Assembly: GCF_913777325.1 (NCBI RefSeq)
Contig: NZ_CAJYSA010000064.1
Origin: an uncultured Sphingomonas sp.
GTDB lineage: Bacteria > Pseudomonadota > Alphaproteobacteria > Sphingomonadales > Sphingomonadaceae
DNA: 64,000 nucleotides
Strand: one strand, 5' to 3'
The stretch's first letter is position 1, and every line of letters starts with the position of its first letter. Below the pieces are notes generated by a model, which was not told the origin of the DNA, did not search any database, and saw nothing but the letters and a program-made list of their open reading frames with translations. Both the position numbers and the translations under genes were made by a program. Positions 5,160-30,645 of the stretch are shown piece after piece.

Positions 5160-5209
5160 CGCCTTCTCTGGCCGACCATCACCGCGAAGGTGACCGGCTA
5201 AATAACTTC

Positions 5210-7316
5210 ATGTTTGACAAGACCTTCAAAAGCCTTACTCGTGTCCGTGGTGAGGGCATTATCTTTAGTGTTCGCCCTGATCCTTCCATCGATCTGACCG
5301 GACGTGTTTACAACTTCACGATCTGGACAGCGATTGGAAAAGTCACCACCAACGTTGAATCGAAGGATGGTGAACTATCCAAGGACGAATCTGGTAACCC
5401 GGTCTTCCTGTGGAATTTCAAGGGTGAGCTTACCGAGCGTCTTTACCTGATCGAAGCGACGATCAACTGGTCACTCAATGATCGTCTTAACGACAAGATC
5501 GAATACATCCGTGGCGGGACGATCACTATCATTCCGGGACCATCTACCCTGACGATGGACAACGATGCTGGCGCTGAAGCTCGCTACATCGACCGCATTA
5601 CGATTAAGGAAAATCCCGAAGATCAGGACAATCCTGCCAACTACACGGTTGTCACCCTTCCTTGCACCGCCACCCCGGCTCCGGTCCCGGCTCCCGTCAA
5701 CAGCGTCGCCCCGGCGATCAGCGGCACCGCGCAGGTTGGCTCGGTCCTGACGGTCAGTAACGGATCATGGTCAGGTTCACCGACATCGTTCGCATATGTG
5801 TGGAATGTCGGCGGGACGACCGTCAGCGGCGCTACCAGCGCGGCTTACACCCCGGTCAGCGGCGACGTTGGAAAGACCGTCACCGCGACCGTCACAGCCG
5901 TCAACGCGGGCGGGTCCACAAGCGCTACGTCAGCGGCCACGTCAGCGGTTTCCCCGATGATCATAGCGGCTCCCTCGGCTTTCGCTTGGGATTTCACGAA
6001 CCACCCTCTGACGGTAAACAAGCAATCGAATAGCAAGTTCAGCGCGTCGCTCGATCCGAAGTCCAAGGTCAACGCCTCGATCTGGTCGTCAACAGTCGAG
6101 TATTGGGTCGTTGCTGGAAAGGATAATTCCGGCAATGGTCTTAGCGAGGCGACCGCTGTTGGTTCAATCGCCGCTGCGATTAAGAAGCTCAATGACAACA
6201 CGAGTGCTACAGCCGGTAGAATCCGCATCAAAAGCGGTGAGTATGGAATTTTCCACAGGCGTCAACGACGCCGGAAATTCGCTTGGCGGTGGGCTTGTCT
6301 ATCCCACGAAGCCAATCGCCTTCATCGGTTACGGGTCAACCAAGCCAATCACGGGACCGTGGCGGAAGGGTCTGGCGTTCACGCTGACCGGAAACGGGGG
6401 GGGCGTCTACACCGTAGCTCGCTCCAACGTCGGTCGTGTGCTCGACTACAGCACCACCGATGCGAATGGCGATTTCATTGAAATCCCGGCGCGTGTCGAT
6501 GAAGCTGCCGTTCGCGCCGCGACCAGTGGTTGGTTTGTCGATACGAGTGGCAATCTTCTAGTAAAGCGCGCCGATGGTGTTCAGCCAACGGATGCCAACA
6601 CCCGCGTTTACCTGAACGCCGCTGCGTTCGGTATCGGATCGAATAATGTCGATGTCTATGCCGAAAACATCGAAATCCATGGTGGTGATTCTGGTGTCAA
6701 CGCTCGCGTCGGTAATACGCGCAACGTTGTCTTGGTGGACATGGTATCGAAGTATGCCGGTTCGCAGCGCGCTGTCACTGCTGGGACGGCACGACCATCA
6801 CTCGGTGGAAATGCCTTCTCGTTTGCTGGTTTTGCTACCGGTTCATTCATTGGATTGTGGCGGTGCGTTGGTGCTCGTTCTGCACAAGACGCAATTTCAA
6901 GCACAAGTAATTCCGGCTCGCCCTTTTATGTGCTGACGGTTGATTGCGTCGGTCGAGATTGCGGCATGGATGGTCAGACATCTTGTAACGGCCTGACGCA
7001 GCACGTGAATGTCATCGGGATTGACCTGAATGGTGAATATCACCGGAACGCGGGTGGCAATCTTCGCAACATCGATTCCACGCAGATTTGGGCGCTAGGA
7101 ACCTACGCGCATGATGATCGTGGTGATGTGATCTTCGGTGGTCCGCTGAACCCTTGCGATTTTAACCTCGGTGGAACTGCCAAGGCGTGGTTCCAAGATG
7201 TTCGCGCAGCAAACTCGCAAATCTCTCTCGCCACGGATTCGAGCACGTCGGCGTATCTTCGCAATGCATCCTTGCCAAACACGAAAATACTGAATGGCGC
7301 GGTTGTGTCCTATTGA
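5210..7316 (+). pseudogene. Tail-spike/depolymerase-like gene interrupted by a +1 frameshift. It has an N-terminal anchor-like domain, an Ig-like repeat, and a predicted beta-helix (pectate-lyase-like) C-terminal part.
   Basis: The frame of 5210 reads sensibly up to ...ATAGRIRIKSGEYGI (~6250) and then becomes Arg-rich nonsense. The frame of 6111 reads as nonsense before ~6243 and then sensibly (FSTGVNDAGNSLGGGLVYPTK...NIEIHGGDSGVNARVGN...) to 7316. The switch occurs at the T4 tract 6249-6252, and one extra T would restore a single ~700 aa ORF. Confidence 0.6.
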
Positions 7317-7324
7317 GGAGCATC

Positions 7325-7693
7325 ATGCCCGACAAACCGCCCGTATTCGGGCGAACGAAGCCCGTCCAGCGCATAGGCGGGTCTTCTACGCTCCCTGACA
7401 GGTCAGCGGCCTATAAACGGCTGTGTGGGGCTCTAATCGCCTCTGATCCGCTATGCCGGTATTGCTTCAATCAGCGTCGTCTCACCCCGGCTACGCTGTG
7501 CGATCACCGGATAGCGCTCGCGCTCGGTGGCACCAACGATCCTGACAATCTGGTGCCAGCCTGCCGCCAATGTAACTCCGACAAGGCCACCGCAGAACAG
7601 CGCTTCTTGCGCCGGGGATACAGCATCCGGGACATAATGTTGGATCACGATCTTTCATCGTGGATCAAGCTCGCGGAGAAGCGCGCCGAATAA
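7325..7693 (+). CDS. HNH endonuclease (phage packaging-associated type)
   Basis: The ATG at 7325 follows GAGGAG. CRYCFNQRRLTPATLCDHRIALALGGTNDPDNLVPACRQCNSDK contains the Cys pairs and the H-N-N/H core. Confidence 0.8.
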   Translation: MPDKPPVFGRTKPVQRIGGSSTLPDRSAAYKRLCGALIASDPLCRYCFNQRRLTPATLCDHRIALALGGTNDPDNLVPACRQCNSDKATAEQRFLRRGYSIRDIMLDHDLSSWIKLAEKRAE

Positions 7694-7701
7694 ATACGGC
7701 T

Positions 7702-10248
7702 ATGGCCTTGTCGATCACAAACAATCTATCTTTGATGAAGCTCGCTGCTGGCGAGGGTATCATCATGTCCTACCAGCCAACCGATCTTGATGATGTTCCG
7801 GAAAGTCTTGCCAATAGGCAATTCTACTGGGTGGCATTCACTGTCGTTAATGGCATTGTAGAAACCCGCCACCAAGAGCCGGGCAAGAACGTTATCACCC
7901 CCGAAGGACCGGTGTCTTTGTGGCAGATGACTGGTAAGGTTTCGCAGAAACTATACAATATTCCGGGATTGCTGTATGGATTTGCTGAAGCTGAAAATGA
8001 TACGATTGATATCTTTGTTACGGGCACGCTGACGATCAATCCGGCTCCCCGCACGATACCGGACAACAACTTCGTTCCGGTCGGAAAATACATTTGGCGC
8101 ATCAAGCGCAAGAATGACCCGGCGACCGCAGCCGCACCGATTTTCAACGTCAGTCCGTATTTTCATACGCTGACGGGCTTGATCCCGGTCAAGGACGCCC
8201 CGGTCAACACCCTAGCGCCGGTCATCAGCGGCACCGCTCAAGCTGGCCAGACGCTCACTGTGTCGGAAGGCGCATGGGACTACAATCCGGAGACTTTCAC
8301 CTATGAGTGGGAGGCAGATGGCGTCACCATCGATGGTGCCACCGCTTCAGCGCTGACCCTGACCACCGCACTTGTCGGCAAGGTCATCACCGCCACCGTC
8401 ACCGCGATCAATGAGGGCGGCAAGGCGTCTGTCACAACGACCGCTACTGCGGCTGTCCTGTCACCGCCCTTGAACAAGCCGACCGTGATCACCCTACCGG
8501 CGATCAGCGGCACGCCTAGCGTGGGCGAAATCCTGACTTCGACCACTGGCACATGGACCTTCGCACCCACGAGTTTCACGCGCCAGTGGCGCAGAGACGG
8601 TGCGGCGATCACTGGCGCTACCAGCGCGACCTACACCATCGTTTCGGGCGATCTTGGTAAGGCGATCTCGGTCAGCGTCACCGCGACCAACGCTGATGGC
8701 TCTGGCAGCGCGACATCCGACCTGATCGGCCCGGTGACTGGTGTCCCGGTCGATGGCCTCGACAACACCATGCCGGTCCCGACCATGACGTTGGCCAGTG
8801 CCAAGGGCACGTTCCCGCCATCGTTCGATATCGAGATTCCGGTTCAGGCGCAGGCTGACAACATCAAGTTCAAAATCGAGCGCTATGCCCTGTCAGCGCT
8901 TAACACCGTGGCATCGACCTACACGGGCACGATCACCGACGCACAGGCGAACGCCAACGCGGTCACGGGGCTGTTTTCCGGGATCACGGCTCCGAGCAGC
9001 TACCGGATGCGCCTTGAGACGCTTGACGGTCAGCGCTGGGGCAATTGGAGCAACTCGGTCATTCATGGCGACGTTGACGCCCCGGCGATCACCACAGCTA
9101 GCGTGAGCATCAAGGAAGGCGTTAAGCTGGCGCTAGCCCTGACGGTCAGCAACGAGCCCGCTGGCGTCACATGGGCGATCAGCGGCACCGATGCGGCGCT
9201 CTTCGAGATCACCGGCACAACCGTTCGCATCCTCAACGATGGCGTGTTCGACTTTGAGCTACCCACCGATGGCAACAAGGACAACGTTTACGAGATCACG
9301 CTTTCGGCGACCGATCTGGCGGGCAATGTTGGCACCAAGAATGTCACAGTGTCGATCACCGACGCTGATGAGATCGTTGATGCGTTCACGTTCGCTAAGC
9401 AGTCCAACGCCACAGTCAACACCGATTACACACGCACGATGACCGTGAGCGGATTGGAAGCCGGTTATTCGGTTCCAATCTCCGTCAGCGGTGGCCTTCG
9501 CTATTCTGTCAACGGTGGATCAACTGGCACGACTGCCGGAACCGTGAAGAACGGTGACGTAGTGACCGTGACGATGAAGTCTTCTGGCACCGGCGCATTC
9601 ACCGTCAGTGGCACGCTTAACATCGGTGGAGTCACAGGTTCGTTCGCGGTTCAGACCGTCATCGGATCAACTCCGGCAATTGCCTCGGCTTCGTTCTTCC
9701 CGACCACGCAGCTTCAATACACGAAAGAGATCAGTCTTGATTTCGGTGTTGGAACCGGGTTCTTCTTCGTATCAACGAACAACGCGGCAACCAACTTCAA
9801 GATCGATGGCGTCAGCGTAACGTCGTTGCTGCCCACGGGTTATTCCTACCTGTTCTGTTTTGACAGCACGACCGCTGGCACGAAGAAGCTGACGTTTGAT
9901 TTGTCAGGCTTCTGGAACGCGTCCGCCGCTGGCATCACAGTCGCTAATGTGTCGATGGATTCGCCATCAGTGGTTGCAACACCGAATAAATATTACAACA
10001 TTCCGTTTAACATCACAGCGCCTGTAATTCCAGCAGACGGTATTGGCCTAGTAATCTTGCTCTCAAGCAAAAAGCTGTCCTCAACCACCGCCCGGAACAA
10101 TCTGATTGTTGACCAACTATACAACGACCCGTCTGCGACCGGCACAAATTACATGGTTGGCACAATGGCAGGCGCAGGTAACGCCACATTCGGTAGCGAA
10201 AACGGCATCTATGAAGCCGTGACAATCGGCCTTGCGAAGAAAGTATAA
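7702..10248 (+). CDS. Large multi-domain adhesin or receptor-binding-like protein: an N-terminal domain paralogous to the 5210 gene, Ig-like repeats and a cadherin-like repeat
   Basis: The start at 7702 is chosen by the TAAATA-N5-ATG motif. Two ~90 aa repeats are PVISGTAQAGQTLTVSEGAW...VTAINEGG and PAISGTPSVGEILTSTTGTW...VTATNADG. The cadherin-like segment is ...DNVYEITLSATDLAGNVGTKNVTVSITDADE. Confidence 0.7.
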   Translation: MALSITNNLSLMKLAAGEGIIMSYQPTDLDDVPESLANRQFYWVAFTVVNGIVETRHQEPGKNVITPEGPVSLWQMTGKVSQKLYNIPGLLYGFAEAENDTIDIFVTGTLTINPAPRTIPDNNFVPVGKYIWRIKRKNDPATAAAPIFNVSPYFHTLTGLIPVKDAPVNTLAPVISGTAQAGQTLTVSEGAWDYNPETFTYEWEADGVTIDGATASALTLTTALVGKVITATVTAINEGGKASVTTTATAAVLSPPLNKPTVITLPAISGTPSVGEILTSTTGTWTFAPTSFTRQWRRDGAAITGATSATYTIVSGDLGKAISVSVTATNADGSGSATSDLIGPVTGVPVDGLDNTMPVPTMTLASAKGTFPPSFDIEIPVQAQADNIKFKIERYALSALNTVASTYTGTITDAQANANAVTGLFSGITAPSSYRMRLETLDGQRWGNWSNSVIHGDVDAPAITTASVSIKEGVKLALALTVSNEPAGVTWAISGTDAALFEITGTTVRILNDGVFDFELPTDGNKDNVYEITLSATDLAGNVGTKNVTVSITDADEIVDAFTFAKQSNATVNTDYTRTMTVSGLEAGYSVPISVSGGLRYSVNGGSTGTTAGTVKNGDVVTVTMKSSGTGAFTVSGTLNIGGVTGSFAVQTVIGSTPAIASASFFPTTQLQYTKEISLDFGVGTGFFFVSTNNAATNFKIDGVSVTSLLPTGYSYLFCFDSTTAGTKKLTFDLSGFWNASAAGITVANVSMDSPSVVATPNKYYNIPFNITAPVIPADGIGLVILLSSKKLSSTTARNNLIVDQLYNDPSATGTNYMVGTMAGAGNATFGSENGIYEAVTIGLAKKV

Positions 10249-10256
10249 GGAGTAAA

Positions 10257-12452
10257 ATGCGCGATAAGAATGGTAAAATCCTAGGTGAGCTAAAGGCTGA
10301 TCAAGTTGGCCCTTATGGTGGCGGGTTTGTAACGAGTTTCTCGATTACCGATGACGCAAAGGTGATGGTTCATGGCACGGACGTAGGCGGCGGCTACGTC
10401 TGGGGCGAAAATGACAAACTATGGCGTCACGTTGTCACCTACGAAAGCTACCCCGATCTAGATGCTTTGAAAGACCCGAACAGCTATGCTGACAGCGATG
10501 GTTGTTACGCGATTGATATTGCTCCGACCAACGGGCAGATCGGATATTGCGTTTTCAGAGGAAGACTGTTCAAGACAACCGATCAGTTCAAGAGCGTCCA
10601 GCTAGTGCCGGGTGGCTACTTCGGTTCACGTTCAAATACCGGTGGCCAGCGCTTGTGGAATGACAAGCTGAAGATCGACCCGGTTGACCCGAAGACCTTC
10701 ATGGTAGGCTCGGAAGGGCAGGGGGTATACTATTCAATCGATGGCGGTGCGACGCTCGTCCGCGTCGCTGGCATCCCGGCTGTCACCCTGACCGATTCGA
10801 ATTATCCGCTACCCATAACCGTTGCGGTAGATCGCACCAGCGATACCGTGAACGGTCGTAAGCAGCATTGGGTGATGTGGGTTCCCGGCTCTGGTCTTTG
10901 GGAGACTACATCGGGTCCGGAAGGAACATGGACCAAGAGCGTCGGATCACCAGCGATTAACATTGCATACCAAATGTCCATTGATCACGCTGGCAATATA
11001 CTCATTGCTGGTGGACCAAACGGCATCTACCAGCGCACTAACGGAACGTGGACGAAGGTGAGTGCTTTTGGTGCGGCGGCTTCTGCCGTGCTGAAGAACA
11101 ATCAGCAAGTGTCTATGGGCTTTAATGGTGACATGAATTTCACCACAGCCGCACTGCCGAATGCTTGGACATCCGACCGGTGGTATCCTCATTATCCACT
11201 TCGTGGTGGTATTCAGTATAAGGCTGACAAGGTTCGGTGGCTGAACAGTGGTCAAAGCCAACTATTCCCGTCCAAGCTGATGCCCGATCCGATCACACCC
11301 AACAAGGTGTGGCTTGTTCACGGCACGGGTATAGCATGGTCTTATGGTCCTAACGGCACTGACCCTATCATCTGGAATGACGTGTCGATTGGCAACGGTA
11401 TGTTGGTGACGAACCGCACCATCATGACACCGGATGGAAACCTATTGCGAGCCGCTTGGGATCAGCCAATTTGGACGGGGAAGACTGACGAAGAGATCGA
11501 CAATCCCCTTGATCATTCAATCTCGGAAGCCTTCAGCCATGGCTGGGATATCGACTGGGTTCCGGGCAAGCCGAACATTGTGGTGGCATGTGTCAACTAT
11601 CAGGCGGAATTCTCCGGTATGTCAACGGACGGTGGAAAGAATTTCACCACCATGTTCCGGCATCCTAACGGCGCTACGCTAGGTGGTAACATTGGGTTCG
11701 TTAGTGAGACTGAAGGATATTGGATACCGGCTAACAATGGTAAGGCGGTTTACACTACCGATGGTGGTCAGAATTGGTCGCTCTTGGAGCTTACTGCAAA
11801 GGATGGTTCGACCTTACCCTCTGGTGGTAGTCAGGGATGGAACTTCGCCTACTATGTCAACAAGAAGAACCTGTTGATCTCGAAGGAAGAGCCGGGCGTG
11901 GCCTACTTGTATAACAACGGTTCAGGTGGATCAGGATTAGCTGGCGTTTGGCGGAAGGAAGCTGGCAGCACGACCTTCAATCAGGTGTTCGCTGGCACGA
12001 TTGGTCGAACGGGTTGGTTTGATTGGTATATGCGACTGTATGAAGTGCCGGGTATGCCGGGAGCGCTGATCCTGTCACCGGGCAATCTGGCCGACAAGCC
12101 AACAGTCATGCGCAGTGCCGATGCTGGTAAGACATGGACCACAGCCAAGACCACACTGAACGGTGTTGAGTATGAAATCGTAAACTGTGAAGATATGGGC
12201 TGGGGAAAGGCAGCGCCGGGGTCACCCTACGCTACTTGCCGCTTCGCCGGTTACATCAACAATGTCTATGGTATCTATGAATCATTCGACAATCTGAAGA
12301 CTGTCACTCGTGTCGGTGGTCACCCGGCTGGCATGACCTACGGACTGACCGGCATCGCGGGACATCCGACCCGTTTTGGTGAGTGGTATTATGGTGTTGG
12401 TCAGATGTCTTGGGCGAAGGCTACGCGGAGGCACGTGCTTCGGTTCAGCTAA
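10257..12452 (+). CDS. BNR/Asp-box beta-propeller protein (sialidase or glycoside-hydrolase-like fold)
   Basis: AAGGAG lies upstream of the ATG. Four Asp-box-like motifs are present: SIDGGATL, STDGGKNF, TTDGGQNW and SADAGKTW. Confidence 0.7.
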   Translation: MRDKNGKILGELKADQVGPYGGGFVTSFSITDDAKVMVHGTDVGGGYVWGENDKLWRHVVTYESYPDLDALKDPNSYADSDGCYAIDIAPTNGQIGYCVFRGRLFKTTDQFKSVQLVPGGYFGSRSNTGGQRLWNDKLKIDPVDPKTFMVGSEGQGVYYSIDGGATLVRVAGIPAVTLTDSNYPLPITVAVDRTSDTVNGRKQHWVMWVPGSGLWETTSGPEGTWTKSVGSPAINIAYQMSIDHAGNILIAGGPNGIYQRTNGTWTKVSAFGAAASAVLKNNQQVSMGFNGDMNFTTAALPNAWTSDRWYPHYPLRGGIQYKADKVRWLNSGQSQLFPSKLMPDPITPNKVWLVHGTGIAWSYGPNGTDPIIWNDVSIGNGMLVTNRTIMTPDGNLLRAAWDQPIWTGKTDEEIDNPLDHSISEAFSHGWDIDWVPGKPNIVVACVNYQAEFSGMSTDGGKNFTTMFRHPNGATLGGNIGFVSETEGYWIPANNGKAVYTTDGGQNWSLLELTAKDGSTLPSGGSQGWNFAYYVNKKNLLISKEEPGVAYLYNNGSGGSGLAGVWRKEAGSTTFNQVFAGTIGRTGWFDWYMRLYEVPGMPGALILSPGNLADKPTVMRSADAGKTWTTAKTTLNGVEYEIVNCEDMGWGKAAPGSPYATCRFAGYINNVYGIYESFDNLKTVTRVGGHPAGMTYGLTGIAGHPTRFGEWYYGVGQMSWAKATRRHVLRFS

Positions 12453-12475
12453 TGATCGGAAGATAAATAAAAGCG

Positions 12476-12612: not shown

Positions 12613-12635
12613 CGGTGTCAGAATGAAAATTTGGG

Positions 12636-13256: not shown

Positions 13257-13268
13257 CTAAATATCCCC

Positions 13269-14169: not shown

Positions 14170-14189
14170 TGTGCTCACTTAAATAAGGG

Positions 14190-15866: not shown

Positions 15867-15878
15867 ATAAATACCCAC

Positions 15879-17087
15879 ATGTCGAGTTTCATTTTAGGAT
15901 TATTTGGCGTTCCGCAGGAGCGTAAAAGCGCAATCACCGTTGAGCGTCGGAGCGAACAGTATATTGAAGATCGCCTGAACAACGAAGATATCAGCGGTTA
16001 CACTAGCGTTTTCTATGCGTGCGGTCGTGTCATCGCTGACGGGTTAGCCAAGCCACCCGTCTATGTTCAGCAAGTGACCAAAGGTGGCCGTCGCTTCGCC
16101 ACTGAACACCCGCTCTACGGGATCATCAGTGCTGTTCCGAACAAGCTTCAGACAAGTCAGGAGCTTCGTCAGGTTCAGGGCTGGCAGGCCGCGACCACGG
16201 GCAACTCATATTGCTGGATCAACCGCGCCAAGCGCTCCCGCGAAATCCTTGAGATCGTCCCGCTGAATCCTTCCGAGATCAGCCGCGTGGATCAAGTCGA
16301 AATCGGAGCGCTGCCGAAGTTCATCATGAACGGTAGCGAGATGGCCGCTGATGAAATTTGGCACTTCCGTGGTCATTCCAACGAGCGCAACGGCGGTGTG
16401 GATACAGCGTCCATGGCGCGCCGGGCCATCCTCATGGCGCAGATAGCGGAAAGCTTCGGTATCGACCTGTTCAAGAACCGGGCGGCGCTCGAAGGTATCA
16501 TCTCGCCTGACGGACAACTTGATCAGGAAGGCTTCAAGCGGCTCAAGGAATCATTCGCGGACCAGCACACCAGCAACGGCAAGAAAGGGCGCACAGCCTT
16601 CTTCCCGACCGCTATCAAATACCAACAATTGTCAGCCACGGCCACGGATTCACAGTGGCTTGAGATGCGTCGGTTCCAGATCGAGGAAATCTGCCGCTAC
16701 TTCCGTGTCAGCCCGATCAAGGTGTTCAGCGCCCTTGGATCGCAGTCCTACGCGAGCGTTGAACAGGGTCACATCGCTCATGACGCTGACACTGACGCGC
16801 ACTGGCATGATCGATACGAGCAAAGCGCCACCAAGGCGCTTCTGACTCCCAAAGATCGCCGCGAAGGCTACACCATCGTTCTGGACAACCGTGCCGCTCT
16901 GCGGGGCACCGCCAAAGAACGGGCGGAATACTACAACCTTGGCGTCACCGGTGGATGGCTGACGGTCAATGAGGTTCGTGAAGCGGAGAATTTCGACCGC
17001 TCTAACGATCCCGAACACGACAAGCTTCGTCCCGCAGCCAACTTGTTTGGCGGAACCTCGAAGCCGTCCGGCACCCCGTCAAACTAA
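15879..17087 (+). CDS. Portal protein (HK97 family)
   Basis: The protein is 402 aa and lies between terL and the prohead protease. Its size and sequence character fit HK97-type portals. Confidence 0.9.
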   Translation: MSSFILGLFGVPQERKSAITVERRSEQYIEDRLNNEDISGYTSVFYACGRVIADGLAKPPVYVQQVTKGGRRFATEHPLYGIISAVPNKLQTSQELRQVQGWQAATTGNSYCWINRAKRSREILEIVPLNPSEISRVDQVEIGALPKFIMNGSEMAADEIWHFRGHSNERNGGVDTASMARRAILMAQIAESFGIDLFKNRAALEGIISPDGQLDQEGFKRLKESFADQHTSNGKKGRTAFFPTAIKYQQLSATATDSQWLEMRRFQIEEICRYFRVSPIKVFSALGSQSYASVEQGHIAHDADTDAHWHDRYEQSATKALLTPKDRREGYTIVLDNRAALRGTAKERAEYYNLGVTGGWLTVNEVREAENFDRSNDPEHDKLRPAANLFGGTSKPSGTPSN

Positions 17088-17095
17088 ATAGCTAT

Positions 17096-17827
17096 ATGAA
17101 GATCGAAAAGAAGACGTTTGTCGGGAGCGTTGAGGTAAAGCTTGCCGACCCTAACAGCGATGTCACGTCGAAATCCTTCACCGGATATGGCGCTTACTTC
17201 GGGAACGAAGATTCCTATGGTGACGTAATCGCACCGGGTGCCTTTACCAAATCACTGGCACGCCACGAGGCGGCGGGAACCCTGCCGCTGATGCTTCTCA
17301 ACCATGACGCATGGAATCAGCTTCCTGTTGGCGTTTGGAAGTCGATGTCAGAAGATGACAGCGGCCTAGTTGTGGAAGGTGAGCTTCTGGACACGTCAAT
17401 TGGGGCTGACGTTTACAAGGCGCTCAAAGCCGGTGCGATTACTGGCCTTTCCATTGGTTTTCGATGCCTCGGCTTCGAGATGACCGGAGAGAAGCGAACC
17501 ATCACTGAAGCCGATCTCATGGAAGTTAGTGTCGTTACCTTCCCGGCTAACGATCTCGCGCGTGTCGAAAGCGTGAAAGCAGAAAATCAGGAGAATGAAA
17601 TGGAAGATGATGAAGCGATCAAGGCCGCGCTGACCAAGGCGGGTTTTGACGACGACGCTGTTGAAGCGCTCTTTAACAGCCGCAAATCCGAAGATGATGA
17701 AGAAGTTGTCAGTGAAGAGGCTTCGTCGGACGATGAGGATCAAGATGAGACTAAATATAATCAGGCCGAAGTTTTAGCGGCCATCGAAATGCTAGTTAAA
17801 ACAACCAAGGAGATGTATGTCCGCTAA
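17096..17827 (+). CDS. Prohead maturation protease (HK97 family) with an acidic C-terminal tail
   Basis: GYGAYFGNEDSYGDVIAPGAFTKSL...MLLNHD...GLSIGF matches the HK97 protease pattern. It is followed by the capsid gene. Confidence 0.9.
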   Translation: MKIEKKTFVGSVEVKLADPNSDVTSKSFTGYGAYFGNEDSYGDVIAPGAFTKSLARHEAAGTLPLMLLNHDAWNQLPVGVWKSMSEDDSGLVVEGELLDTSIGADVYKALKAGAITGLSIGFRCLGFEMTGEKRTITEADLMEVSVVTFPANDLARVESVKAENQENEMEDDEAIKAALTKAGFDDDAVEALFNSRKSEDDEEVVSEEASSDDEDQDETKYNQAEVLAAIEMLVKTTKEMYVR

Positions 17828-18970: not shown

Positions 18971-19003
18971 AAAAGGCCGGGTGAGCGATCATCCGGCTTT
19001 TTT
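18971..19003 (+). terminator. Hairpin plus T-run after the capsid gene (partial terminator or attenuator)
   Basis: The stem pairs GCCGG (18976-80) with CCGGC (18993-97). It is flanked by AAAA on the 5' side and TTTTTT on the 3' side. Confidence 0.55.
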
Positions 19004-19024
19004 CATGCCCGAATAAATACCCTT

Positions 19025-20635: not shown

Positions 20636-20644
20636 AGATAAATA

Positions 20645-20669
20645 CTCCTGAACGTTAATGTTTCAGGAG
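20645..20669 (+). promoter_or_regulatory. Hairpin that sequesters the Shine-Dalgarno sequence of the major tail gene
   Basis: CTCCTGAA (20645-52) is the exact reverse complement of TTCAGGAG (20662-69), with a 9 nt loop. The AGGAG at 20665-69 is the RBS for the ATG at 20674. Confidence 0.5.
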
Positions 20670-21512: not shown

Positions 21513-21826
21513 GTCCGGAGCGTCGCTTCCTATTCCGCTTGGCTCTAGCGCTTGGGCGCACGGTGGCAGAATTAGATGCGACGCTATCCCCGGATGAATT
21601 TGAGGAATGGATTGCCTTCCATTCGCTAGAACCATTCGGATCACCGGTTGAAGATGAGCGGGCGCGTGTCAGCAATACGCTGTTCGCTCACGCAAACTTC
21701 AAGGAAGTCCCGGAATGGTGCCTCTTTGATCGTGATCCCGAAGAGACGGCGCGCTTGAAGGCCAAGCACACGCAAGATGATGCCCTACTGGCCTTCTTCA
21801 ACTCGATAGCGGTCGATGAAGCCTAA
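21099..21826 (+). CDS. Tail assembly chaperone frameshift product (G-T-like), produced by a -1 shift at 21494..21502
   Basis: The -1 frame is open from at least 21500 to the stop at 21826. The extension reads KFRLSPERRFLFRLALALGRTVAELDATLSPDEFEEWIAFHSLEPFG... Confidence 0.6.
21494..21502 (+). promoter_or_regulatory. Slippery sequence (A9 run, GCA AAA AAA AAT) for programmed -1 frameshifting
   Basis: Nine consecutive A residues lie 3 codons before the G stop. The downstream ORF is in the -1 frame. Confidence 0.6.
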
Positions 21827-21834
21827 ATATCCAT

Positions 21835-24186: not shown

Positions 24187-24199
24187 ACTAAATACCTTC

Positions 24200-24796: not shown

Positions 24797-25482
24797 TGCG
24801 TCCCGACCTGTCACCGGCAGCGATCAGCGCCATCGGCGCACCCACGATCACCACCTTCATTGCGGCTTCGCTGGCCTTCAAATCCGAGGTTTGTAACATC
24901 TGGACCGGCATCTGTCCGCTCACTCCGAAGGGCTATGCTGACAGCCTGTTAGAAGGGAAAACGTTCGATCCGCTGGTTGCCGGGCTGGTGATCGACATCA
25001 GCGCCAACACCTTCACCCTTCAGGGTTCCAACGAGCTTACCATCACCCTCAACATCCCAACTGACGCCAATGTCGCGGTTGCGGCGGCGAACGTCTACCC
25101 GAACGAATACCAAGGGCGTGAGGCGGTGCTGTGGCGCGTCATCAAGCTTGAGCAGCCGAACGTCTTGGATGAGCCCGTGTGGCATTTCAGCCGCATCCGT
25201 AGCGGATCGATGGATAAGGTCGAAATCCAAGCTGACGGTCAGTCCAATAAATTCATCCTCACGATTGAATCTCATCAATCACGCGTGAGTAACGCCAGCA
25301 ATCAAACCTACCTCAATCAGCGCTCGTATGATCCGAACGACACGTCACAGGATTATGCTGTCAGCATCGCCAATGGTGATCCGGCACCGTCAAAAAGGCC
25401 GGTTGCTAGTGGTTATGCCAATTCTGCCGCGTCGTTCGGTGGTGTGGGCAAGTATTTCCTTGATAGGATCGCCCAAAACTAA
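24796..25482 (+). CDS. Minor tail / tail-tip hub protein
   Basis: It is coupled to the upstream gene by TGATG. The protein is 228 aa and lies in the tail-tip block. Confidence 0.6.
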   Translation: MRPDLSPAAISAIGAPTITTFIAASLAFKSEVCNIWTGICPLTPKGYADSLLEGKTFDPLVAGLVIDISANTFTLQGSNELTITLNIPTDANVAVAAANVYPNEYQGREAVLWRVIKLEQPNVLDEPVWHFSRIRSGSMDKVEIQADGQSNKFILTIESHQSRVSNASNQTYLNQRSYDPNDTSQDYAVSIANGDPAPSKRPVASGYANSAASFGGVGKYFLDRIAQN

Positions 25483-25490
25483 ATACAGGC

Positions 25491-25931: not shown

Positions 25932-27544
25932 TGGCGAAGGTCGTCAAGACGGTCGCGTTGATCGCTGTTGCGGTCGCCATTGTGGTTGTCGCCGCGCCGT
26001 TCGCTGGTGCCGTTGCCGGGCTCTACGGTGCCAGTGCGGCCACGGTCGCGGCCATCTCATCGGCTGTTGTGGGTATCGGTCTTTCGATTGGCTTGGGAGC
26101 CATCGGCACCCTGTTCCGCAAGAGCGCCACGATGTCATCCTCGATGGCGGATCGTCTTCAGACTCAGATCGTCCCCGCTGCCCCTCGGAAGATCGTCTTC
26201 GGACGCTCCGCAGCCGGTAACGACGAACGCTTCTTCGAAGTGTGGGGGAAGAACAAGGACAGCTACGCCAGAGTAGTGGTGGCTGCGTCTCATCGCATCC
26301 ATGCTTTCAAGAAATTCTACATCGAGAATGACGAAACATGGAATGGTTCACTCGTTGCGCATAGTGACGGGATCGCCTCGCTACGCACTGTCACAGAAGG
26401 TCGTCCCGGCAACGGCTTCGCAGTTGGTTCGGGTGCTTACTGGAAATCTACCGCTACCTTCACCGGGTGCGCCTATTACGCGATCCAATATAAACTATCC
26501 GACAAAGCGTGGCCTAGCGGTATTCCAGCGCGCAACACGATGGAGATTGAAGGGTGTCCGCTCTACGATCCAAGGCTAGATAGTAGCCGGGGAGGATCAG
26601 GGCCGCATCGCATCGAAGATCAGTCAACATGGTCTTTCTACAGCGGCACTATCGAAATCGGGCGCAATCCAGCGAACGCTTTGCTGACGTATCTGATCGG
26701 CTATCGGATCAACGGTAAGCTCGCTTGGGGGATGGGCGTTCCGCCTTCCGCGATCAACTTCGATAACTTCCGCAAGTATGCGAACGTCTGTGAAGAACGC
26801 GTCCAGATCGCCACCGGTGGAACCACGCAGCGCTATACTTGTGATGGCATCTACTCGACTTCCGACACCCATGAGAGTGTGATTGCGTCGATCACCGCCG
26901 CGATGGGTTGCACCAAGCTGGTGGATGTCGCCGGGACGTATTCGCTGATTGGCGGGTATGACGACACGCTCGGTCCAAAGCACGCCTTTGATGACGGTGA
27001 CATCATCGGAATGGGATCGTGGGTGCCCGCTGGTCCGCTGCGTGAAACCTACAATATCGTTGAAGGTAAATTCCCCGATCCTGATGAGCTATTTCAGGTA
27101 AATTCTTGGGGTAAGATCGAAACAGCACCGGCAGCGGATGGCATTCCACGTTCGTTAACGCTTGATCTCGGCTGTGTGGGACGCGCTGAAACCTGTCAGC
27201 GTATCGCCAAACAGTTCATTGCGCGTGAACAACTAACGCCGGGACATTTCACCGCGACTTTTGGACCGAAGGCTTTTGCGGTTCAGATTGGTGATCTTCT
27301 CACGCTGTCGCATGGTGTTCGAAGCTGGAACAACAAGCTGTTTCGGGTGATCGAACAGCAAGAAGTTCATGACATGTTTTATCAGATGACCTTGCGCGAA
27401 GAAAATCCAGAAGTTTTCGCGTGGGACAAGGACGAAGCCAAACCGGTCCCGTTCAACCTTCGTCCGCCCGGCTATGACGCATCCATGAAAATCAGCATCG
27501 AAGGGCTGCGTCTGTCAACGATCACATACCAAGGTGTCAGCTAA
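25931..27544 (+). CDS. Tail tip / host-specificity (J-like) protein with a hydrophobic N-terminal segment
   Basis: It is coupled to the upstream gene by TAATG. The protein is 537 aa and lies after the peptidase-like gene. Its N-terminal ~60 aa are strongly hydrophobic. Confidence 0.6.
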   Translation: MAKVVKTVALIAVAVAIVVVAAPFAGAVAGLYGASAATVAAISSAVVGIGLSIGLGAIGTLFRKSATMSSSMADRLQTQIVPAAPRKIVFGRSAAGNDERFFEVWGKNKDSYARVVVAASHRIHAFKKFYIENDETWNGSLVAHSDGIASLRTVTEGRPGNGFAVGSGAYWKSTATFTGCAYYAIQYKLSDKAWPSGIPARNTMEIEGCPLYDPRLDSSRGGSGPHRIEDQSTWSFYSGTIEIGRNPANALLTYLIGYRINGKLAWGMGVPPSAINFDNFRKYANVCEERVQIATGGTTQRYTCDGIYSTSDTHESVIASITAAMGCTKLVDVAGTYSLIGGYDDTLGPKHAFDDGDIIGMGSWVPAGPLRETYNIVEGKFPDPDELFQVNSWGKIETAPAADGIPRSLTLDLGCVGRAETCQRIAKQFIAREQLTPGHFTATFGPKAFAVQIGDLLTLSHGVRSWNNKLFRVIEQQEVHDMFYQMTLREENPEVFAWDKDEAKPVPFNLRPPGYDASMKISIEGLRLSTITYQGVS

Positions 27545-27552
27545 ATAACTTT

Positions 27553-28887: not shown

Positions 28888-29183
28888 TGGCGCTGGTCTT
28901 CGAAATCAGAAACCCCGATGGATCAATGCACCTTGATTTATCCAAGCGCGTGACCCGCTACATCGGCACGTTCACGATCAGCGCTTCGCAACCTTCGGGA
29001 GCAATCACTCATCCGGCTTTTGGTGTTGAGGGAAGGCCTTATTTTCATCCGGTAAGTCTGTGGGTTGGCAATTTCCCCGGATCAATGCCGTGGATTATCG
29101 CGCGATCAAACTCTATCACTTGGGAGTATCGCGCCGCTAACAACTCGCCAATGAGCGTCACCATTGCCTACGGTGTATTCTGA
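28887..29183 (+). CDS. Hypothetical protein (fibre-associated, 98 aa)
   Basis: It is coupled to the fibre gene by TGATG. Confidence 0.55.
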   Translation: MALVFEIRNPDGSMHLDLSKRVTRYIGTFTISASQPSGAITHPAFGVEGRPYFHPVSLWVGNFPGSMPWIIARSNSITWEYRAANNSPMSVTIAYGVF

Positions 29184-29836
29184 TGGCAACGGGCGTTAGC
29201 ATCGCGAACAATTATGGTTCAATTATCGTCAACGAGAATTTCAAAAATGATTATCTCGTTAGGAAGGGAACGGTAACGATCTCCTCGCGAAGTAGCTATG
29301 ATTTTACCTCGGTCAATTTCAGCGGGGTGGCTCCGAAGTTTGCCTTCCGAGAAAACACCGGTGGGAAGATGGTCGGTGTCACCTCCATCGACTACTACAA
29401 CGGCACCTACACCGCAAACATGGTGTGTTCGGACACCCCCGCCACCATCACCTATTATATCTTCGATACAGTGCCAGATAATCTACCATCGCTCGGCTAT
29501 TTCTCGGTGCGTGATGGTCAGGGTCGTCTAACTTTCGATTCTAACCTCAAGTATCTTCGCCTAATTGATTTCGTCAGCGGTAACGGGCGAACGGCTCCTA
29601 AGGTCGCTGGTGTCACTGAGGCTGCGATTATCTGTTCACCGAACATGCAACAGTGGGGTGGTGGCGGCGGCTTCTCAACCGTTGCCTCGGCTGTCGCTGA
29701 CTTCGGCTTCGGTTATGATCTCGCGTATTTGAATATGGGATACACCGACACCAGCGATGGTGGCACCATCAACTCAAACGAACCCACGTATGATTACCCG
29801 ACATCGGTCATGATCATTGATGTCACCGGTTATTAA
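29183..29836 (+). CDS. Hypothetical protein (217 aa), tail-fibre region
   Basis: It is coupled to the upstream gene by TGATG and the ORF is uninterrupted. Confidence 0.55.
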   Translation: MATGVSIANNYGSIIVNENFKNDYLVRKGTVTISSRSSYDFTSVNFSGVAPKFAFRENTGGKMVGVTSIDYYNGTYTANMVCSDTPATITYYIFDTVPDNLPSLGYFSVRDGQGRLTFDSNLKYLRLIDFVSGNGRTAPKVAGVTEAAIICSPNMQQWGGGGGFSTVASAVADFGFGYDLAYLNMGYTDTSDGGTINSNEPTYDYPTSVMIIDVTGY

Positions 29837-29843
29837 ATACGGT

Positions 29844-30461
29844 ATGAAAATTCTTCTTGAAAAGACCATGCAGAACGGCGCTCAAGCGTCGGAGCACACG
29901 ATTGAAACCCTGACGATCACGGACGGTCAGGCTGTCGCTACCGTCACGAGCCGCACCAGCGCTGGTCAGCTAGCGTGGCAGGAGCCGTGCGAGATCGACC
30001 CCGCTGACCTTACTGGTGACCCTATAGCGAGCGCCGCCGCGTCGCTGATGAAGGGCGGGGGTTATCTCGAAGGTGGCGTGATCGAAGCGGATCAGACCCC
30101 GCTTGAGGTTCGAAAACTGACTTCGCTCAAGCGTGTGGATCAACTGCGCGAGATCAAGGTCACGGGTGGCTGCCCGACCGAACACGGGATCGTCCAGACC
30201 GATGACGTGTCGATCCGCAACATCCTCGGGAGCGTCCAGACGGCATCTCTGTCGGCGAAGCTGGAAACGCCATTCTCGATTGAGTGGCGCATGGCCGACA
30301 ATAGCGTCGTCACCCTCGATGCCAACGAGATGATCGCCATGGGCGTGGCGGTGATGAGCCATATCAAGACCTGTTACACCCGCTCGTGGGCGCTCAAGGA
30401 CGCTGTTGAGGCGTGTCAGGATGAGGTGAGCTTGGCCGCTCTGGTGCTGACGCTCGACTAA
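29844..30461 (+). CDS. Hypothetical protein, possibly tail-fibre-assembly-like
   Basis: The start at 29844 is chosen by TAAATA-N4-ATG. The upstream stop is inside the motif. Confidence 0.55.
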   Translation: MKILLEKTMQNGAQASEHTIETLTITDGQAVATVTSRTSAGQLAWQEPCEIDPADLTGDPIASAAASLMKGGGYLEGGVIEADQTPLEVRKLTSLKRVDQLREIKVTGGCPTEHGIVQTDDVSIRNILGSVQTASLSAKLETPFSIEWRMADNSVVTLDANEMIAMGVAVMSHIKTCYTRSWALKDAVEACQDEVSLAALVLTLD

Positions 30462-30468
30462 ATAGCTG

Positions 30469-30645
30469 ATGAAAAATTTCCTCGCGTCCCTGACGCCCCG
30501 CAAAGTCAAAGTCATCGTGGCCATCGCTCTAGCCGTGGCCAGCGCGTTCGGTGTCATCCAGCCCGAACAGGCTACGCAATGGCGCAACACCATCGGCATG
30601 GCCGTTGACCTGATCCCGTCCGAAAACACCGGCGATCTTCTCTAA
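30469..30645 (+). CDS. Small membrane protein (58 aa), holin-like or other
   Basis: It is below the ORF-track cut-off. The start is TAAATA-N4-ATG. Translation is MKNFLASLTPRKVKVIVAIALAVASAFGVIQPEQATQWRNTIGMAVDLIPSENTGDLL, with one hydrophobic helix. Confidence 0.45.
   Translation: MKNFLASLTPRKVKVIVAIALAVASAFGVIQPEQATQWRNTIGMAVDLIPSENTGDLL

Follow-up and report, generated by a model that had tools for sequence, protein, structure and literature searches.

The window, as we call the whole stretch of DNA analysed here (64,000 nt), holds a prophage that meets host DNA at about 31 kb, and 33 kb of host sequence. The prophage genes encode Ig-like repeat proteins, packaging functions and a series of head and tail proteins, and recurring among them is the hexamer TAAATA. 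Its plus-strand copies, with two hairpins that accompany them, are as follows.

5199..5204, plus strand: TAAATA; 5 nt, then ATG 5210 of a 423-aa Ig-like repeat protein; no gene end nearby
7691..7696, plus strand: TAAATA; 5 nt, then ATG 7702 of an 848-aa Ig-like repeat protein; its TAA is the HNH stop
9987..9992, plus strand: orphan TAAATA within the 848-aa ORF, out of frame and without a following start codon
12464..12469, plus strand: orphan TAAATA 12 nt past the BNR stop; faces the antisense of a 206-aa minus-strand gene, then the packaging genes
13258..13263, plus strand: TAAATA; 5 nt, then ATG 13269 of a 108-aa ORF, followed by a terS-like gene
14180..14185, plus strand: TAAATA; 4 nt, then ATG 14190 of the large terminase (terL)
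15868..15873, plus strand: TAAATA; 5 nt, then ATG 15879 of the portal; upstream stop is a separate TGA
17085..17090, plus strand: TAAATA; 5 nt, then ATG 17096 of the prohead protease; its TAA doubles as the stop of the portal gene
17752..17757, plus strand: TAAATA within the protease ORF (acT-AAA-TAt), 59 nt before capsid ATG 17817
18971..19003, plus strand: terminator-like hairpin and T-run (intrinsic type) downstream of capsid; 10 nt separate its end from the following TAAATA
19014..19019, plus strand: TAAATA; 5 nt, then ATG 19025 of the head-tail adaptor; heads four overlapping genes
20639..20644, plus strand: TAAATA at the head of the 29-nt major tail protein leader
20645..20669, plus strand: hairpin beginning at the first base past the motif (-10.9 kcal/mol), before major tail ATG 20674
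21824..21829, plus strand: TAAATA; 5 nt, then ATG 21835 of the tape measure protein
24189..24194, plus strand: TAAATA; 5 nt, then GTG 24200 of the distal tail protein; upstream stop is a separate TGA
25480..25485, plus strand: TAAATA; 5 nt, then GTG 25491 of a DUF6950-type tail protein
27542..27547, plus strand: TAAATA; 5 nt, then GTG 27553 of the tail fibre
29834..29839, plus strand: TAAATA; 4 nt, then ATG 29844 of a 205-aa tail-associated protein
30459..30464, plus strand: TAAATA; 4 nt, then ATG 30469 of a 58-aa ORF; final block ahead of the prophage/host boundary

The copy at 13258..13263 sits in a 12-nt gap separating divergent start codons, and the orphan at 12464..12469 may be the head of the late transcript. 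Two gene models of an earlier note on this DNA are corrected here: the gene at 30469 is only 58 codons long, and the HNH gene starts at 7325, not 7187.

TAAATA is enriched in the prophage and strand-specific. All 17 plus-strand copies fall between 5199 and 30464, the minus strand of the window has one copy (2645), and the 33 kb of host DNA has none. About 3.3 copies would be expected on both strands together, and 0 of 100 shuffled sequences reached 18, in agreement with the earlier note, which had counted 17 and roughly estimated that a few would arise by chance. That note had also placed 13 copies 4-5 nt before start codons, with coordinates and gene assignments that proved correct throughout. 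The distance from the motif to the ATG (10) or GTG (3), which opens an ORF of at least 50 codons, is 4 nt at three of these sites and 5 nt at the other ten; since the probability of this at a random position is only 0.024, the binomial P for 13 of 17 is 2e-18. No one-mismatch variant of TAAATA was found before starts anywhere in the window. In 259 kb there are 182 copies of TAAATA vs 2-26 of hexamers of the same composition, an enrichment of about 20-fold.

Some 70 related Sphingomonas and Sphingobium prophage loci carry the signal, nearly always on the coding strand and at the same gene junctions, including portal, protease, adaptor, tape measure and distal tail, among relatives whose portal proteins are as low as 35-70% identical. 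Prophages of this kind are present in S. guangdongensis CGMCC 1.12672, Sphingomonas sp. Leaf242 and S. faeni MA-olki, and one with TAAGTA in S. gellani S6-262. Among non-redundant relatives of the lineage with the hexamer close to starts (TAAATA-near), it occupies the near-start position at terL in 21/24, portal in 25/26, protease in 25/25, head-tail adaptor in 24/25, tape measure in 19/21, distal tail in 18/18 and the DUF6950-type tail gene in 16/16. A sister lineage (TAAATA-far, for example L009) has the hexamer at the same junctions but 24-105 nt 5' of the starts, with GGAG-type Shine-Dalgarno leaders in between (portal 8/8, adaptor 7/8, tape measure 6/6, major tail 7/7, capsid 8/8). In at least 10 further loci TAAATA is absent and TAAGTA occurs 8-11 times with unchanged geometry. 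Two genomes (L097 and L099) use both variants and TAAATA phages contain a few TAAGTA sites, so variant specificity is not absolute. The motif is thus conserved at orthologous junctions in two lineage-specific variants, TAAATA and TAAGTA, and its function is independent of the distance to the start codon. Across the family 242 of 437 distinct sites are near-start, with a spacing of 4 nt at 159 and 5 nt at 83, and 50 of the 242 (21%) adjoin GTG. The base before the motif is usually C or A, so that 6-7 bp are conserved in all; no conserved -35 element was found upstream. At de-duplicated distant sites (n = 105), A is enriched 7-8 nt after the motif (0.41 and 0.37).

This pattern leaves scarcely any probability for the motif as a by-product of chance, of a TAA stop codon and its context, or of module boundaries that promote recombination. 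Its TAA does serve as the upstream stop codon at 7 of the 13 window sites, but it is also kept beside a separate TGA (15864, 24184) and where no gene ends nearby (5199, 13258, 14180, 19014), as had been pointed out earlier, and inside an ORF out of frame. The recombination boundaries suggested in the earlier note are without support because six bases are too short for homologous recombination and the motif persists between genes that are syntenic in every relative, even at the portal divergence given above. The counts against shuffles and same-composition hexamers, the positional P value and the conservation at orthologs effectively refute this reading.

The two structural genes with leaders are equally regular, as motif and then leader with Shine-Dalgarno precede capsid and major tail in every lineage. 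The copy at 17752 is not a stray: it is a conserved copy 59 nt 5' of the capsid start (25/25 TAAATA-near relatives) and heads a leader containing the Shine-Dalgarno sequence aaggag. It is held within the protease ORF as xxT-AAA-TAy, and its Lys codon is always AAA, against the preference in Lys codon usage (AAA 70 vs AAG 176). Upstream of major tail, TAAATA is found in 23/24 relatives of the window's own lineage. The earlier description of the 20639 copy as followed by a hairpin and Shine-Dalgarno sequence holds; the 5' arm of the hairpin, ctcctgaa, is anti-Shine-Dalgarno-like and the 3' arm, ttcaggag, contains the Shine-Dalgarno sequence of the major tail gene. In other lineages the arms differ yet pair (for example ccttaga/tctaagg, ctccgtaa/ttatggag and ccccg/cgggg).

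Genes inside overlapping groups (head-closure, gp10-like, tail assembly chaperone and second tail gene) have 0 near-start copies, consistent with the earlier remark that overlapping stop/start junctions lack the motif. The hairpin and T-run followed by TAAATA after the capsid gene recur in L002, L003, L004, L007, L008 and L009, and a run of at least four T lies within 16 nt upstream of 31/490 sites vs 7 controls. Divergent and tandem arrangements of the motif are also seen. Distinct back-to-back pairs (TATTTA, 15-95 nt, TAAATA) number 14 vs about 3 convergent ones, and L096, L095 and L005 have units in which the motif is followed about 65 nt on by an intrinsic terminator and then by a second motif. 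Given the distant copies before Shine-Dalgarno leaders, the TAAGTA lineage and these back-to-back and terminator arrangements, TAARTA is the signal at the head of almost every independently expressed block, and not a Shine-Dalgarno substitute as such.

Within the window, none of the 13 motif-adjacent genes has a Shine-Dalgarno core at the proper place, and their anti-Shine-Dalgarno duplex energies are mostly +0.7 to -3.7 kcal/mol; capsid, major tail, BNR, tail-completion and HNH have AGGAG/GGAGG-type sites at -7 to -13 kcal/mol. These energies, calculated against the 16S rRNA 3' tail, confirm both the missing Shine-Dalgarno sequences of the earlier note and its canonical sites at capsid, major tail, BNR and HNH. 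Its statement that the motif replaces the Shine-Dalgarno sequence is a good description of the window, but fails as a definition of the motif, distant copies of which precede Shine-Dalgarno-led starts.

Starts bearing the motif have a mean unpaired probability of 0.52 vs 0.38 at control ATG/GTG codons (P = 8e-24). With start regions so accessible, Shine-Dalgarno-independent initiation, the first meaning offered in the earlier note, stays physically plausible, and we consider it unlikely that UAARUA is a translation-level element in polycistronic mRNA, either initiating without Shine-Dalgarno or serving as a ribosome standby or loading site. Such an element could keep the start region unstructured, or bind protein S1 or a phage RNA-binding protein. 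The motif occupies the Shine-Dalgarno position, 4-5 nt from the start, at the 242 near-start sites, whose genes lack that sequence; in major tail leaders it immediately precedes a hairpin in which the Shine-Dalgarno sequence is sequestered, the layout expected of a standby site; and the 21% of GTG starts resembles leadered genes, of which 27% are non-AUG in Caulobacter (PMC8459731). Start choice in Caulobacter is reported to be made mainly by accessibility (bioRxiv 10.1101/2022.10.10.510831). However, accessibility alone would admit any A/T-rich hexamer, and would not lead one to expect a sequence without variation or lineages with almost exclusively A or exclusively G at position 4; the motif shows no complementarity to the 3' tail of 16S rRNA; and the reading leaves unexplained both the conserved copies 24-105 nt before Shine-Dalgarno-led starts, one of them inside the protease ORF, and those in divergent control regions or before short terminated units without an ORF.

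An RNA processing site would fit the independence from start-codon distance. UAARUA would then be where host RNase E/G or a phage endoribonuclease cuts the long late transcript into mRNAs of block size, each with a 5' end that is short or capped by a hairpin; we think this distinctly unlikely. The motif is A/U-rich within a G+C-rich transcript, and each gene block has a single site, comparable to the RNase III sites of T7. Hairpins 0-1 nt past the motif in the major tail leaders and in the L009 portal and tape-measure leaders would form a protective 5'-terminal stem-loop, and cleavage immediately past the terminator hairpin of the capsid gene would yield a capsid mRNA that is protected. Over all distant sites, though, hairpins at the first base are found at 32% vs 26% at random positions and lie no closer, and upstream sequence is no more structured than controls. 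Back-to-back pairs 15-36 nt apart would need transcripts starting within the opposite unit. An exact hexamer is not a known requirement of RNase E, and the A/G switch between lineages points to a dedicated enzyme, for which no candidate was found. Leaders of 4-7 nt after a cut would also translate poorly if Sphingomonas resembles Caulobacter (PMC8459731).

Of the three meanings in the earlier note, the best supported is a -10 element like that of T4 late promoters combined with leaderless mRNA, although its geometry and start codons raise problems. The reading that we favour, at somewhat less than an even chance, is that TAARTA is a minimal T4-late-like promoter element giving leaderless or near-leaderless mRNAs in this clade. 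The TAARTA core would act on DNA as a promoter and mark the beginnings of phage transcripts, with one copy for each independently expressed gene block, and genes within a block, which overlap by ATGA and similar junctions, would presumably be translated by coupling. In the window's clade most block leaders would have shrunk to 4-5 nt, so that RNA 5' ends would fall at the start codon or within one or two bases of it and the leaderless mRNAs would need no Shine-Dalgarno sequence. Capsid and major tail, the proteins needed in the largest amounts, retain a true leader, in which the motif is followed by a strong Shine-Dalgarno sequence. The invariant hexamer, its lineage specificity and its absence from the host DNA are typical of phage-specific promoters, the back-to-back pairs and terminator-containing units in control regions are promoter-like, and the A enrichment 7-8 nt past distant motifs is as expected near a transcription start. 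There is precedent for -10 elements adjoining ORFs with leaderless mRNA in Deinococcus-Thermus (PMC12340547), and 119 leaderless transcripts exist in Zymomonas, a sphingomonad relative (PMC7566282).

A promoter of this kind would probably be read by a dedicated factor and not by the host sigma-A holoenzyme acting alone. About 100 partial loci, where the common genes were structural genes, terS and HNH only, yielded no RNA polymerase, sigma factor or other reader, and neither did the proteins scanned, a set without several small ones, in the roughly 31 kb examined of a 38.6-kb provirus (L029 plus L099). The discriminator of sigma-A-type promoters is usually 6 nt in Zymomonas and Caulobacter (PMC7566282), and in leaderless Deinococcus genes the -10 element is 6-7 bp from the ORF (PMC12340547); applied to a spacing of 4-5 nt, either geometry would make transcription begin within the start codon. 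Under T4 geometry, by contrast, a spacing of 5 nt would make the first base of the start codon, A or G, exactly the +1 position. In Caulobacter, non-AUG starts account for only 4.4% of leaderless mRNAs, and their translation is roughly halved per added 5' nucleotide (PMC8459731); the motif spacing and 21% GTG starts fit leaderless expression imperfectly. For the major tail hairpin directly after the motif, a 5' end 5-7 nt downstream would be no more suitable than one created at the motif itself, and perhaps less so.

No description of a TAARTA signal was found in the literature searched, and four known systems invite comparison. The first carries a rival explanation, that the hexamer is an asymmetric DNA site for a phage repressor or regulator that blocks or modulates transcription at many points, which we hold to be very unlikely. 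Stoperators of Cluster A mycobacteriophages are likewise numerous and asymmetric, follow the direction of transcription, and are found in short gaps between genes and at early promoters, with a consensus that varies between lineages (PMC9283540); TAARTA shares the orientation, the gaps, the clustering in divergent control regions and lineage-specific variants reminiscent of immunity groups. Stoperators are however 13 bp long, against 6-7 bp here, are bound by a known repressor, and have neither fixed start spacing nor a tie to missing Shine-Dalgarno sequences; the sharp 4-5-nt spacing and the Shine-Dalgarno loss at exactly the motif-adjacent genes would be unexplained, and no repressor candidate was recognised beside the divergent pairs.

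Start-associated sequences (SAS) of Cluster K mycobacteriophages and Cluster EF Microbacterium phages, the function of which is reported as unknown (PMC3203893, PMC7302621), are also phage-specific, asymmetric and highly conserved repeats a few bases 5' of many starts, in a single orientation, essentially absent from the host, sometimes containing the upstream stop and favouring ATG. They are 13 bp with an AGGAG Shine-Dalgarno core and belong to non-structural genes, an extended inverted repeat accompanying roughly half of them, whereas the present motif has 6-7 bp without such a core, mainly precedes structural genes and also lies 24-105 nt from starts.

The T4 late promoter TATAAATA, at positions -13 to -6, is recognised by gp55, a sigma factor of the phage, together with gp33 and the sliding clamp (PMC1524935). 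TAAATA is the last six bases of TATAAATA, and both are short, exact A/T-rich -10-type elements without a -35, in many copies before late genes. The two upstream bases of T4 (TA) are not conserved here, C or A preceding TAARTA; a TAAGTA variant also occurs here; the phage carrying the motif is a temperate HK97-like siphovirus of about 40 kb, unlike the T4-like myoviruses; gp55-, gp33- and gp45-like genes were not seen in the loci examined; and T4 promoters have no fixed start-codon distance, their mRNAs having leaders.

The fourth system is the ORF-adjoining -10 element of Deinococcus-Thermus with its leaderless mRNA, a type known from mycobacteria too and mentioned for the Thermus phage phiYS40 (PMC12340547). 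It stands at the ribosome-binding-site position before starts without Shine-Dalgarno, begins with TA, and coexists with true Shine-Dalgarno genes in the same genome. That element is a degenerate TANNNT located 6-7 bp from the ORF, which the host housekeeping sigma reads at roughly one third of the host's genes, whereas the element described here is an exact hexamer restricted to the prophage, 4-5 bp from the ORF, with a lineage-specific variant.

The first ~31,000 nt of the window (~55% G+C) are prophage DNA with an HK97-like structural module consisting of terL, portal, S78 protease, capsid, adaptor, major tail, tape measure, distal tail and fibre genes, and the rest is host DNA of ~68% G+C. 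The hexamer TAAATA occurs 17 times on the plus strand, always within 5199-30464, and once on the minus strand; the expectation is ~3.3 for both strands together, and a total of 18 was reached by no shuffled sequence. Of the 17 plus-strand copies, 13 stand 4-5 nt ahead of the ATG or GTG of an open reading frame of at least 50 codons, an arrangement with a probability of 0.024 at a random position and a binomial P value of 2e-18. The host DNA (33 kb) holds no TAAATA and a single TAAGTA, a sample too small to exclude rare use by the host. No one-mismatch variants of TAAATA were found before starts in the window. A scan of 12-31.5 kb for sigma-70-type promoters and terminators gave no more matches than shuffled sequence, Rfam families had no match in 1-32 kb, and the sole tRNA sits in host DNA.

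Most of the 13 motif genes pair weakly with the anti-Shine-Dalgarno (SD) sequence (+0.7 to -3.7 kcal/mol), and window genes with real AGGAG sites reach -7 to -13 kcal/mol, both ranges being calculated with a 16S rRNA 3' tail that we take from general knowledge, not from this genome. Complementarity to this tail 5-9 nt before the start, as expected of an SD site, is absent from the motif itself. AGGAG/GGAGG-type sites precede the capsid, major tail, BNR, tail-completion and HNH genes. The earlier note on this DNA, which reported a fixed-distance TAAATA before 13 phage genes lacking SD sequences, was thus correct in its coordinates and descriptive claims, including the counts and the absence of SD sites, and the enrichment over shuffled sequence and the positional P value bear it out.

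The window portal (15879-17087) has a 100% identical counterpart in an uncultured Sphingomonas sp., the best portal match in a cultured phage is below 34% identity, and the window late region has no nucleotide match among 50,697 phage records. Approximately 100 loci around related portal genes were collected from isolate genomes, metagenomes and IMG/VR by scanning genomes with a portal alignment; scanning with short peptide patterns gave none. Where a host could be identified, it is always Sphingomonas or Sphingobium. In about 45 loci whose portals share 45-70% identity with the query, and in a few at 35-38%, the coding strand has 9-16 TAAATA per 21 kb, compared with 0-4 for the opposite strand. 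In de-duplicated late regions amounting to 259 kb, TAAATA is found 182 times, compared with 2-26 times for non-overlapping hexamers of equal composition. The motif is kept at orthologous junctions, as the comparison with sphingomonad prophages proposed in the earlier note would have it, and the bases that flank it vary freely among relatives.

Near-start TAAATA (4-5 nt before the start) at orthologous junctions in 26 non-redundant loci of the type with the motif close to starts
Portal: 25 of 26 loci
Protease: 25 of 25 loci
Adaptor: 24 of 25 loci
terL: 21 of 24 loci
Tape measure: 19 of 21 loci
Distal tail: 18 of 18 loci
DUF6950 gene: 16 of 16 loci

Of 22 relatives, 13 have the motif 4-5 nt before the HNH gene, which is SD-led in the window, and more distant relatives without either variant of the motif, L055, L068, L082 and L086, have ordinary overlaps and SD sequences at the same junctions. 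The motif is a real, selected signal. Chance and stop-codon context are excluded as explanations by the enrichment, the positional P value and the conserved junctions, as is the suggestion in the earlier note that the copies are module boundaries promoting recombination.

An alignment of 437 distinct motif sites shows how little else is conserved. Upstream, only the preceding base is constrained, being C at 70% of sites and otherwise A, and the next base further upstream is not T; information content from -50 to -2 nowhere exceeds ~0.3 bits, and nothing resembles a -35 element. Motif and start are 4 nt apart at 159 sites, 5 nt apart at 83 and 6 nt apart at only 7, the spacing being larger elsewhere. 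At the 242 sites with 4-5 nt the start is ATG in 192 cases and GTG in 50 (21%), the GTG starts including terL in several relatives and the distal tail, DUF6950 and fibre genes in the window. Directly upstream of the start codon stands G at 77% of 4-nt sites and C at 60% of 5-nt sites, a preference that persists even where the other spacer bases vary and for which no explanation was found. The antisense copy, TATTTA, is present 4 times, where hexamers of equal composition range over 2-19, and its frequency does not tell a DNA-level signal from an RNA-level one. Where genes overlap in blocks, the motif heads the block and is never found at the genes inside it. In the window, the copy at the head of the adaptor block lies 10 nt beyond the end of a terminator-like hairpin with a T-run, and this arrangement recurs in relatives.

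At least 10 related loci, including prophages of S. gellani and S. xinjiangensis, have no TAAATA and 8-11 copies of TAAGTA, on the coding strand only. The terS, portal, adaptor and distal tail starts have TAAGTA 4-5 nt upstream, and the leaders of the capsid, major tail and tape-measure genes also follow a copy. Nearly all copies in a given genome are of one variant or the other (together, TAARTA), the exceptions being the Sphingomonas longa prophage L097, which mixes both, and a few single TAAGTA sites in TAAATA phages. A further exception is the provirus L099 (IMGVR_UViG_3300048861_000259), which has a methyltransferase module on the minus strand (2240-3813; MT-A70, N6_N4_Mtase) with TAAGTA 4 nt before the ATG of three genes; the genes on the other strand all have TAAATA. 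An identical 30-nt stretch lies upstream of two of the three TAAGTA sites, which suggests that these two arose by duplication. As a separate feature of L097, AACGTT is over-represented in this prophage (23 copies vs 4.2 expected).

A sister lineage with portals ~40% identical (L009 and L031-L043) is also enriched in TAAATA, on the coding strand only, with the copies 24-105 nt upstream of the portal (8/8), adaptor (7/8), major tail (7/7), tape-measure (6/6) and capsid (8/8) genes, and with GGAG-type SD sequences in the leaders between motif and start. Within the window's own lineage, a distant copy followed by an SD leader is found at the capsid gene (25/25) and the major tail gene (23/24). The copy that precedes capsid is written within the protease reading frame, always as xxT-AAA-TAy; AAA is the minority lysine codon in this phage (70, vs 176 AAG), and T-ending threonine and alanine codons are likewise in the minority, so it is the nucleotides and not the protein that are conserved here. 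The function of the signal is independent of its distance from the start. Since copies are kept 60-100 nt from starts that have their own SD sequences, the motif is not a substitute for a ribosome-binding site. The statement in the earlier note that it replaces the SD sequence therefore holds for the 13 window genes without a usable SD, but not for the distant copies, which precede SD-led starts.

An element acting at the level of translation would account for the close spacing, and start regions with the motif are accessible (0.52 unpaired vs 0.38 in controls). It leaves unexplained the distant copies, the exactness of the hexamer, the one-base variant and the copies in control regions. There, 14 distinct divergent back-to-back pairs are found (TATTTA, 15-95 nt, TAAATA), compared with ~3 convergent pairs. 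In the early control regions of three phages, a TAAATA is followed after ~65 nt by an intrinsic terminator and then by a second TAAATA with a leader and SD sequence.

Motif-terminator-motif units in early control regions
Locus L096, 1579-1722
Locus L095, 741-854
Locus L005, 600-700

This is the layout of a small transcription unit, and the terminated units may be small RNAs or a short terminated leader like lambda pR'-tR'. The control-region arrangements look promoter-like. The orientation of the copies, the operator-like clusters and the lineage variants would also be accounted for by a stoperator-like repressor site (PMC9283540), which would leave a site of 6-7 bp at a fixed distance from starts without explanation.

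TAARTA thus behaves as a mark of the head of an expression unit, that is, of an mRNA 5' end, and the best-supported reading is that of a minimal promoter element of the T4 late type. The T4 late promoter has TATAAATA at -13 to -6 (PMC1524935), and TAAATA equals its 3' six bases. This reading is supported by the sequence match, the 5-nt geometry, the lack of a -35 element, and a modest enrichment of A 7-8 nt downstream of the motif at de-duplicated distant sites. With T4 geometry, the 5-nt spacing at 10 of the 13 window sites would make the first base of the start codon +1. This clade would have lost most of its leaders, giving leaderless or near-leaderless mRNAs, with SD leaders kept for the two most abundant proteins, capsid and major tail; GTG at several low-copy proteins would suit an adjustment of how much of each protein is made. 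That the hexamer is exact, is missing from host DNA and has a lineage-specific variant suggests a dedicated factor as reader, rather than the unaided host holoenzyme.

Several observations count against the promoter reading, one being that no reader turned up among the proteins scanned. The commonest spacing in the family, 4 nt, is one base short of T4 geometry and matches neither the 6-nt discriminator of sigma-A promoters in the sphingomonad relative Zymomonas and in Caulobacter (PMC7566282), nor the 6-7 bp between the -10 element and the ORF in Deinococcus leaderless genes (PMC12340547). The 21% of GTG starts are a weakness of its leaderless part, as non-AUG starts make up only 4.4% of Caulobacter leaderless mRNAs, in which even one extra 5' base halves translation (PMC8459731). 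A further weakness is the hairpin of the major tail leader, whose first base directly follows the motif and whose 3' arm carries the SD. The arms differ in sequence between lineages and keep their complementarity. RNAalifold predicted no consensus structure for the major tail leaders because these do not align in register, and the hairpin evidence therefore rests on individual folds.

If RNA were cut at the motif, the hairpin would be a protective 5' cap. An RNA processing site of this kind would account for both the distance independence and the hairpin-capped leaders. An RNase E-type site would be an A/U-rich single-stranded segment between stem-loops; the motif is A/U-rich, and hairpins adjoin it in the major tail leaders. 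Over all sites, however, tests of flanking structure are negative on both sides: hairpins next to all distant copies do not differ from those at random positions, nor does structure upstream of the motif differ from controls, and the closely spaced divergent pairs are awkward for a processing site. If ribosomes were to load on the motif, the hairpin would be a standby site. Under the promoter reading, one may speculate that transcription starts 5-7 nt downstream, leaving out the anti-SD arm and freeing the SD only in transcripts from the gene's own promoter.

A reader was sought by clustering the open reading frames of the ~100 loci and by following one provirus contig to its end. Sequence searches against Pfam, PHROG and PDB found no sigma factor, RNA polymerase or RNase among the upstream and early-region proteins scanned, in prophages that were partly sampled and whose many small proteins are unannotated; they gave instead methyltransferases, an MmeI-type enzyme, a VapE-like primase, HNH, lysozyme and fibre-like proteins. 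Two proteins of 423 and 848 aa encoded upstream of terS were rejected as candidates for a single-subunit RNA polymerase, both being Ig-like repeat proteins. They have similar N-termini and lie in 5210-12452 with a BNR/Asp-box protein of 731 aa, a position that holds fibre-like or restriction-modification genes in other relatives.

Taken to its full extent, the promoter reading would be that of a private six-base code across this Sphingomonadaceae prophage clade, in which TAARTA is a minimal promoter used with an unrecognised phage factor, the A/G at position 4 is a one-base specificity switch, and late mRNAs in the window's lineage are mostly leaderless. Capsid and major tail alone would have leaders, with their SD exposed only in transcripts from their own promoters because the anti-SD hairpin arm lies between motif and transcript start. 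We put this complete picture forward tentatively, and consider it rather unlikely as a whole. If the motif is a promoter, this temperate siphovirus would have at least a dozen identical minimal promoters and late mRNAs that are for the most part leaderless, an organisation of which no description in alphaproteobacterial phages was found in the literature searched; there would also have to be an undiscovered RNA polymerase specificity factor, whose recognition has changed by one base between lineages. If the motif acts in RNA, initiation or processing would depend on a sequence-specific signal that makes no use of SD sequences, which would also be unusual. A portable six-base expression signal with orthogonal variants could serve sphingomonad engineering. 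Several cultured, sequenced strains carry such prophages, among them S. guangdongensis CGMCC 1.12672 (L004/L089), Sphingomonas sp. Leaf242 (L093), S. faeni MA-olki (L096), S. gellani S6-262 (L092, of the TAAGTA type) and S. longa BT552 (L097, with both variants).

The motif also marks start codons missed by public gene calls in relatives, and gene finders trained on SD sequences will mis-call starts throughout this prophage group.

Called and motif-defined starts in two related loci
Locus L002, 8316-8328, terL: called at 8419, motif-defined at 8326
Locus L001, 15784-15796, tape-measure gene: called at 15824, motif-defined at 15794
Locus L001, 18130-18142, distal tail gene: called at 18293, motif-defined at 18140

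The window HNH endonuclease (7325-7693) starts at ATG 7325 (MPDKPP...) behind the SD gaggag, and not at the longest-ORF start, 7187. Most relatives have the motif directly before terS. At 13269-13999 in the window, it precedes a 108-aa ORF with no homologues that overlaps the terS-like ORF (13562-13999, GTG) by 34 nt, and whose start is 12 nt from the divergent start of a 206-aa gene on the minus strand. A different compositional feature of the window prophage (1-31100) is GCTGAC, with 46 copies vs 9.6 expected (its complement GTCAGC, 39 vs 10.2); the related hexamers CGCTGA and TCAGCG are enriched as well.

Literature searches on TAAATA with phage, and on motifs of Sphingomonas prophages, turned up no account in which TAAATA or TAAGTA marks phage gene starts, and the motif misses at least one defining feature of each known family with which we compared it. 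With a sigma-A -10 element next to an ORF, both variants share the initial TA, the -10 pattern of the leaderless type being TANNNT and the consensus in Zymomonas and Caulobacter TANNNN with no conserved T at -7 (PMC7566282). However, the hexamer of the sigma-A leaderless type lies 6-7 bp from the start (PMC12340547, PMC7566282) and not mostly at 4-5 nt, and alphaproteobacterial leaderless starts strongly prefer AUG, unlike the motif-led starts with their share of GTG. The T4 late promoter likewise lacks a -35 element. The six last bases of its octamer match, but the two upstream bases do not. No sigma-like counterpart of its gp55/gp33-type factors came up among the proteins scanned in partially sampled prophages. 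Stoperators are also asymmetric, oriented with transcription, and located at early promoters and in intergenic gaps, but they are repressor-bound sites of ~13 bp, whereas only 6-7 bp are conserved here. Cluster K mycobacteriophages have start-associated sequences of unknown function (PMC3203893, PMC7302621), which are asymmetric conserved repeats 3-8 bp before many starts, in one orientation and rare in the host; they differ in having 13 bp with an AGGAG core, while the motif has 6-7 bp and no G-rich core. In description, the signal resembles these start-associated sequences; in its working, it would be most like T4 late promoters or the leaderless -10-adjacent genes of Deinococcus-Thermus. 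We rate it as a phage-specific repeated expression signal.
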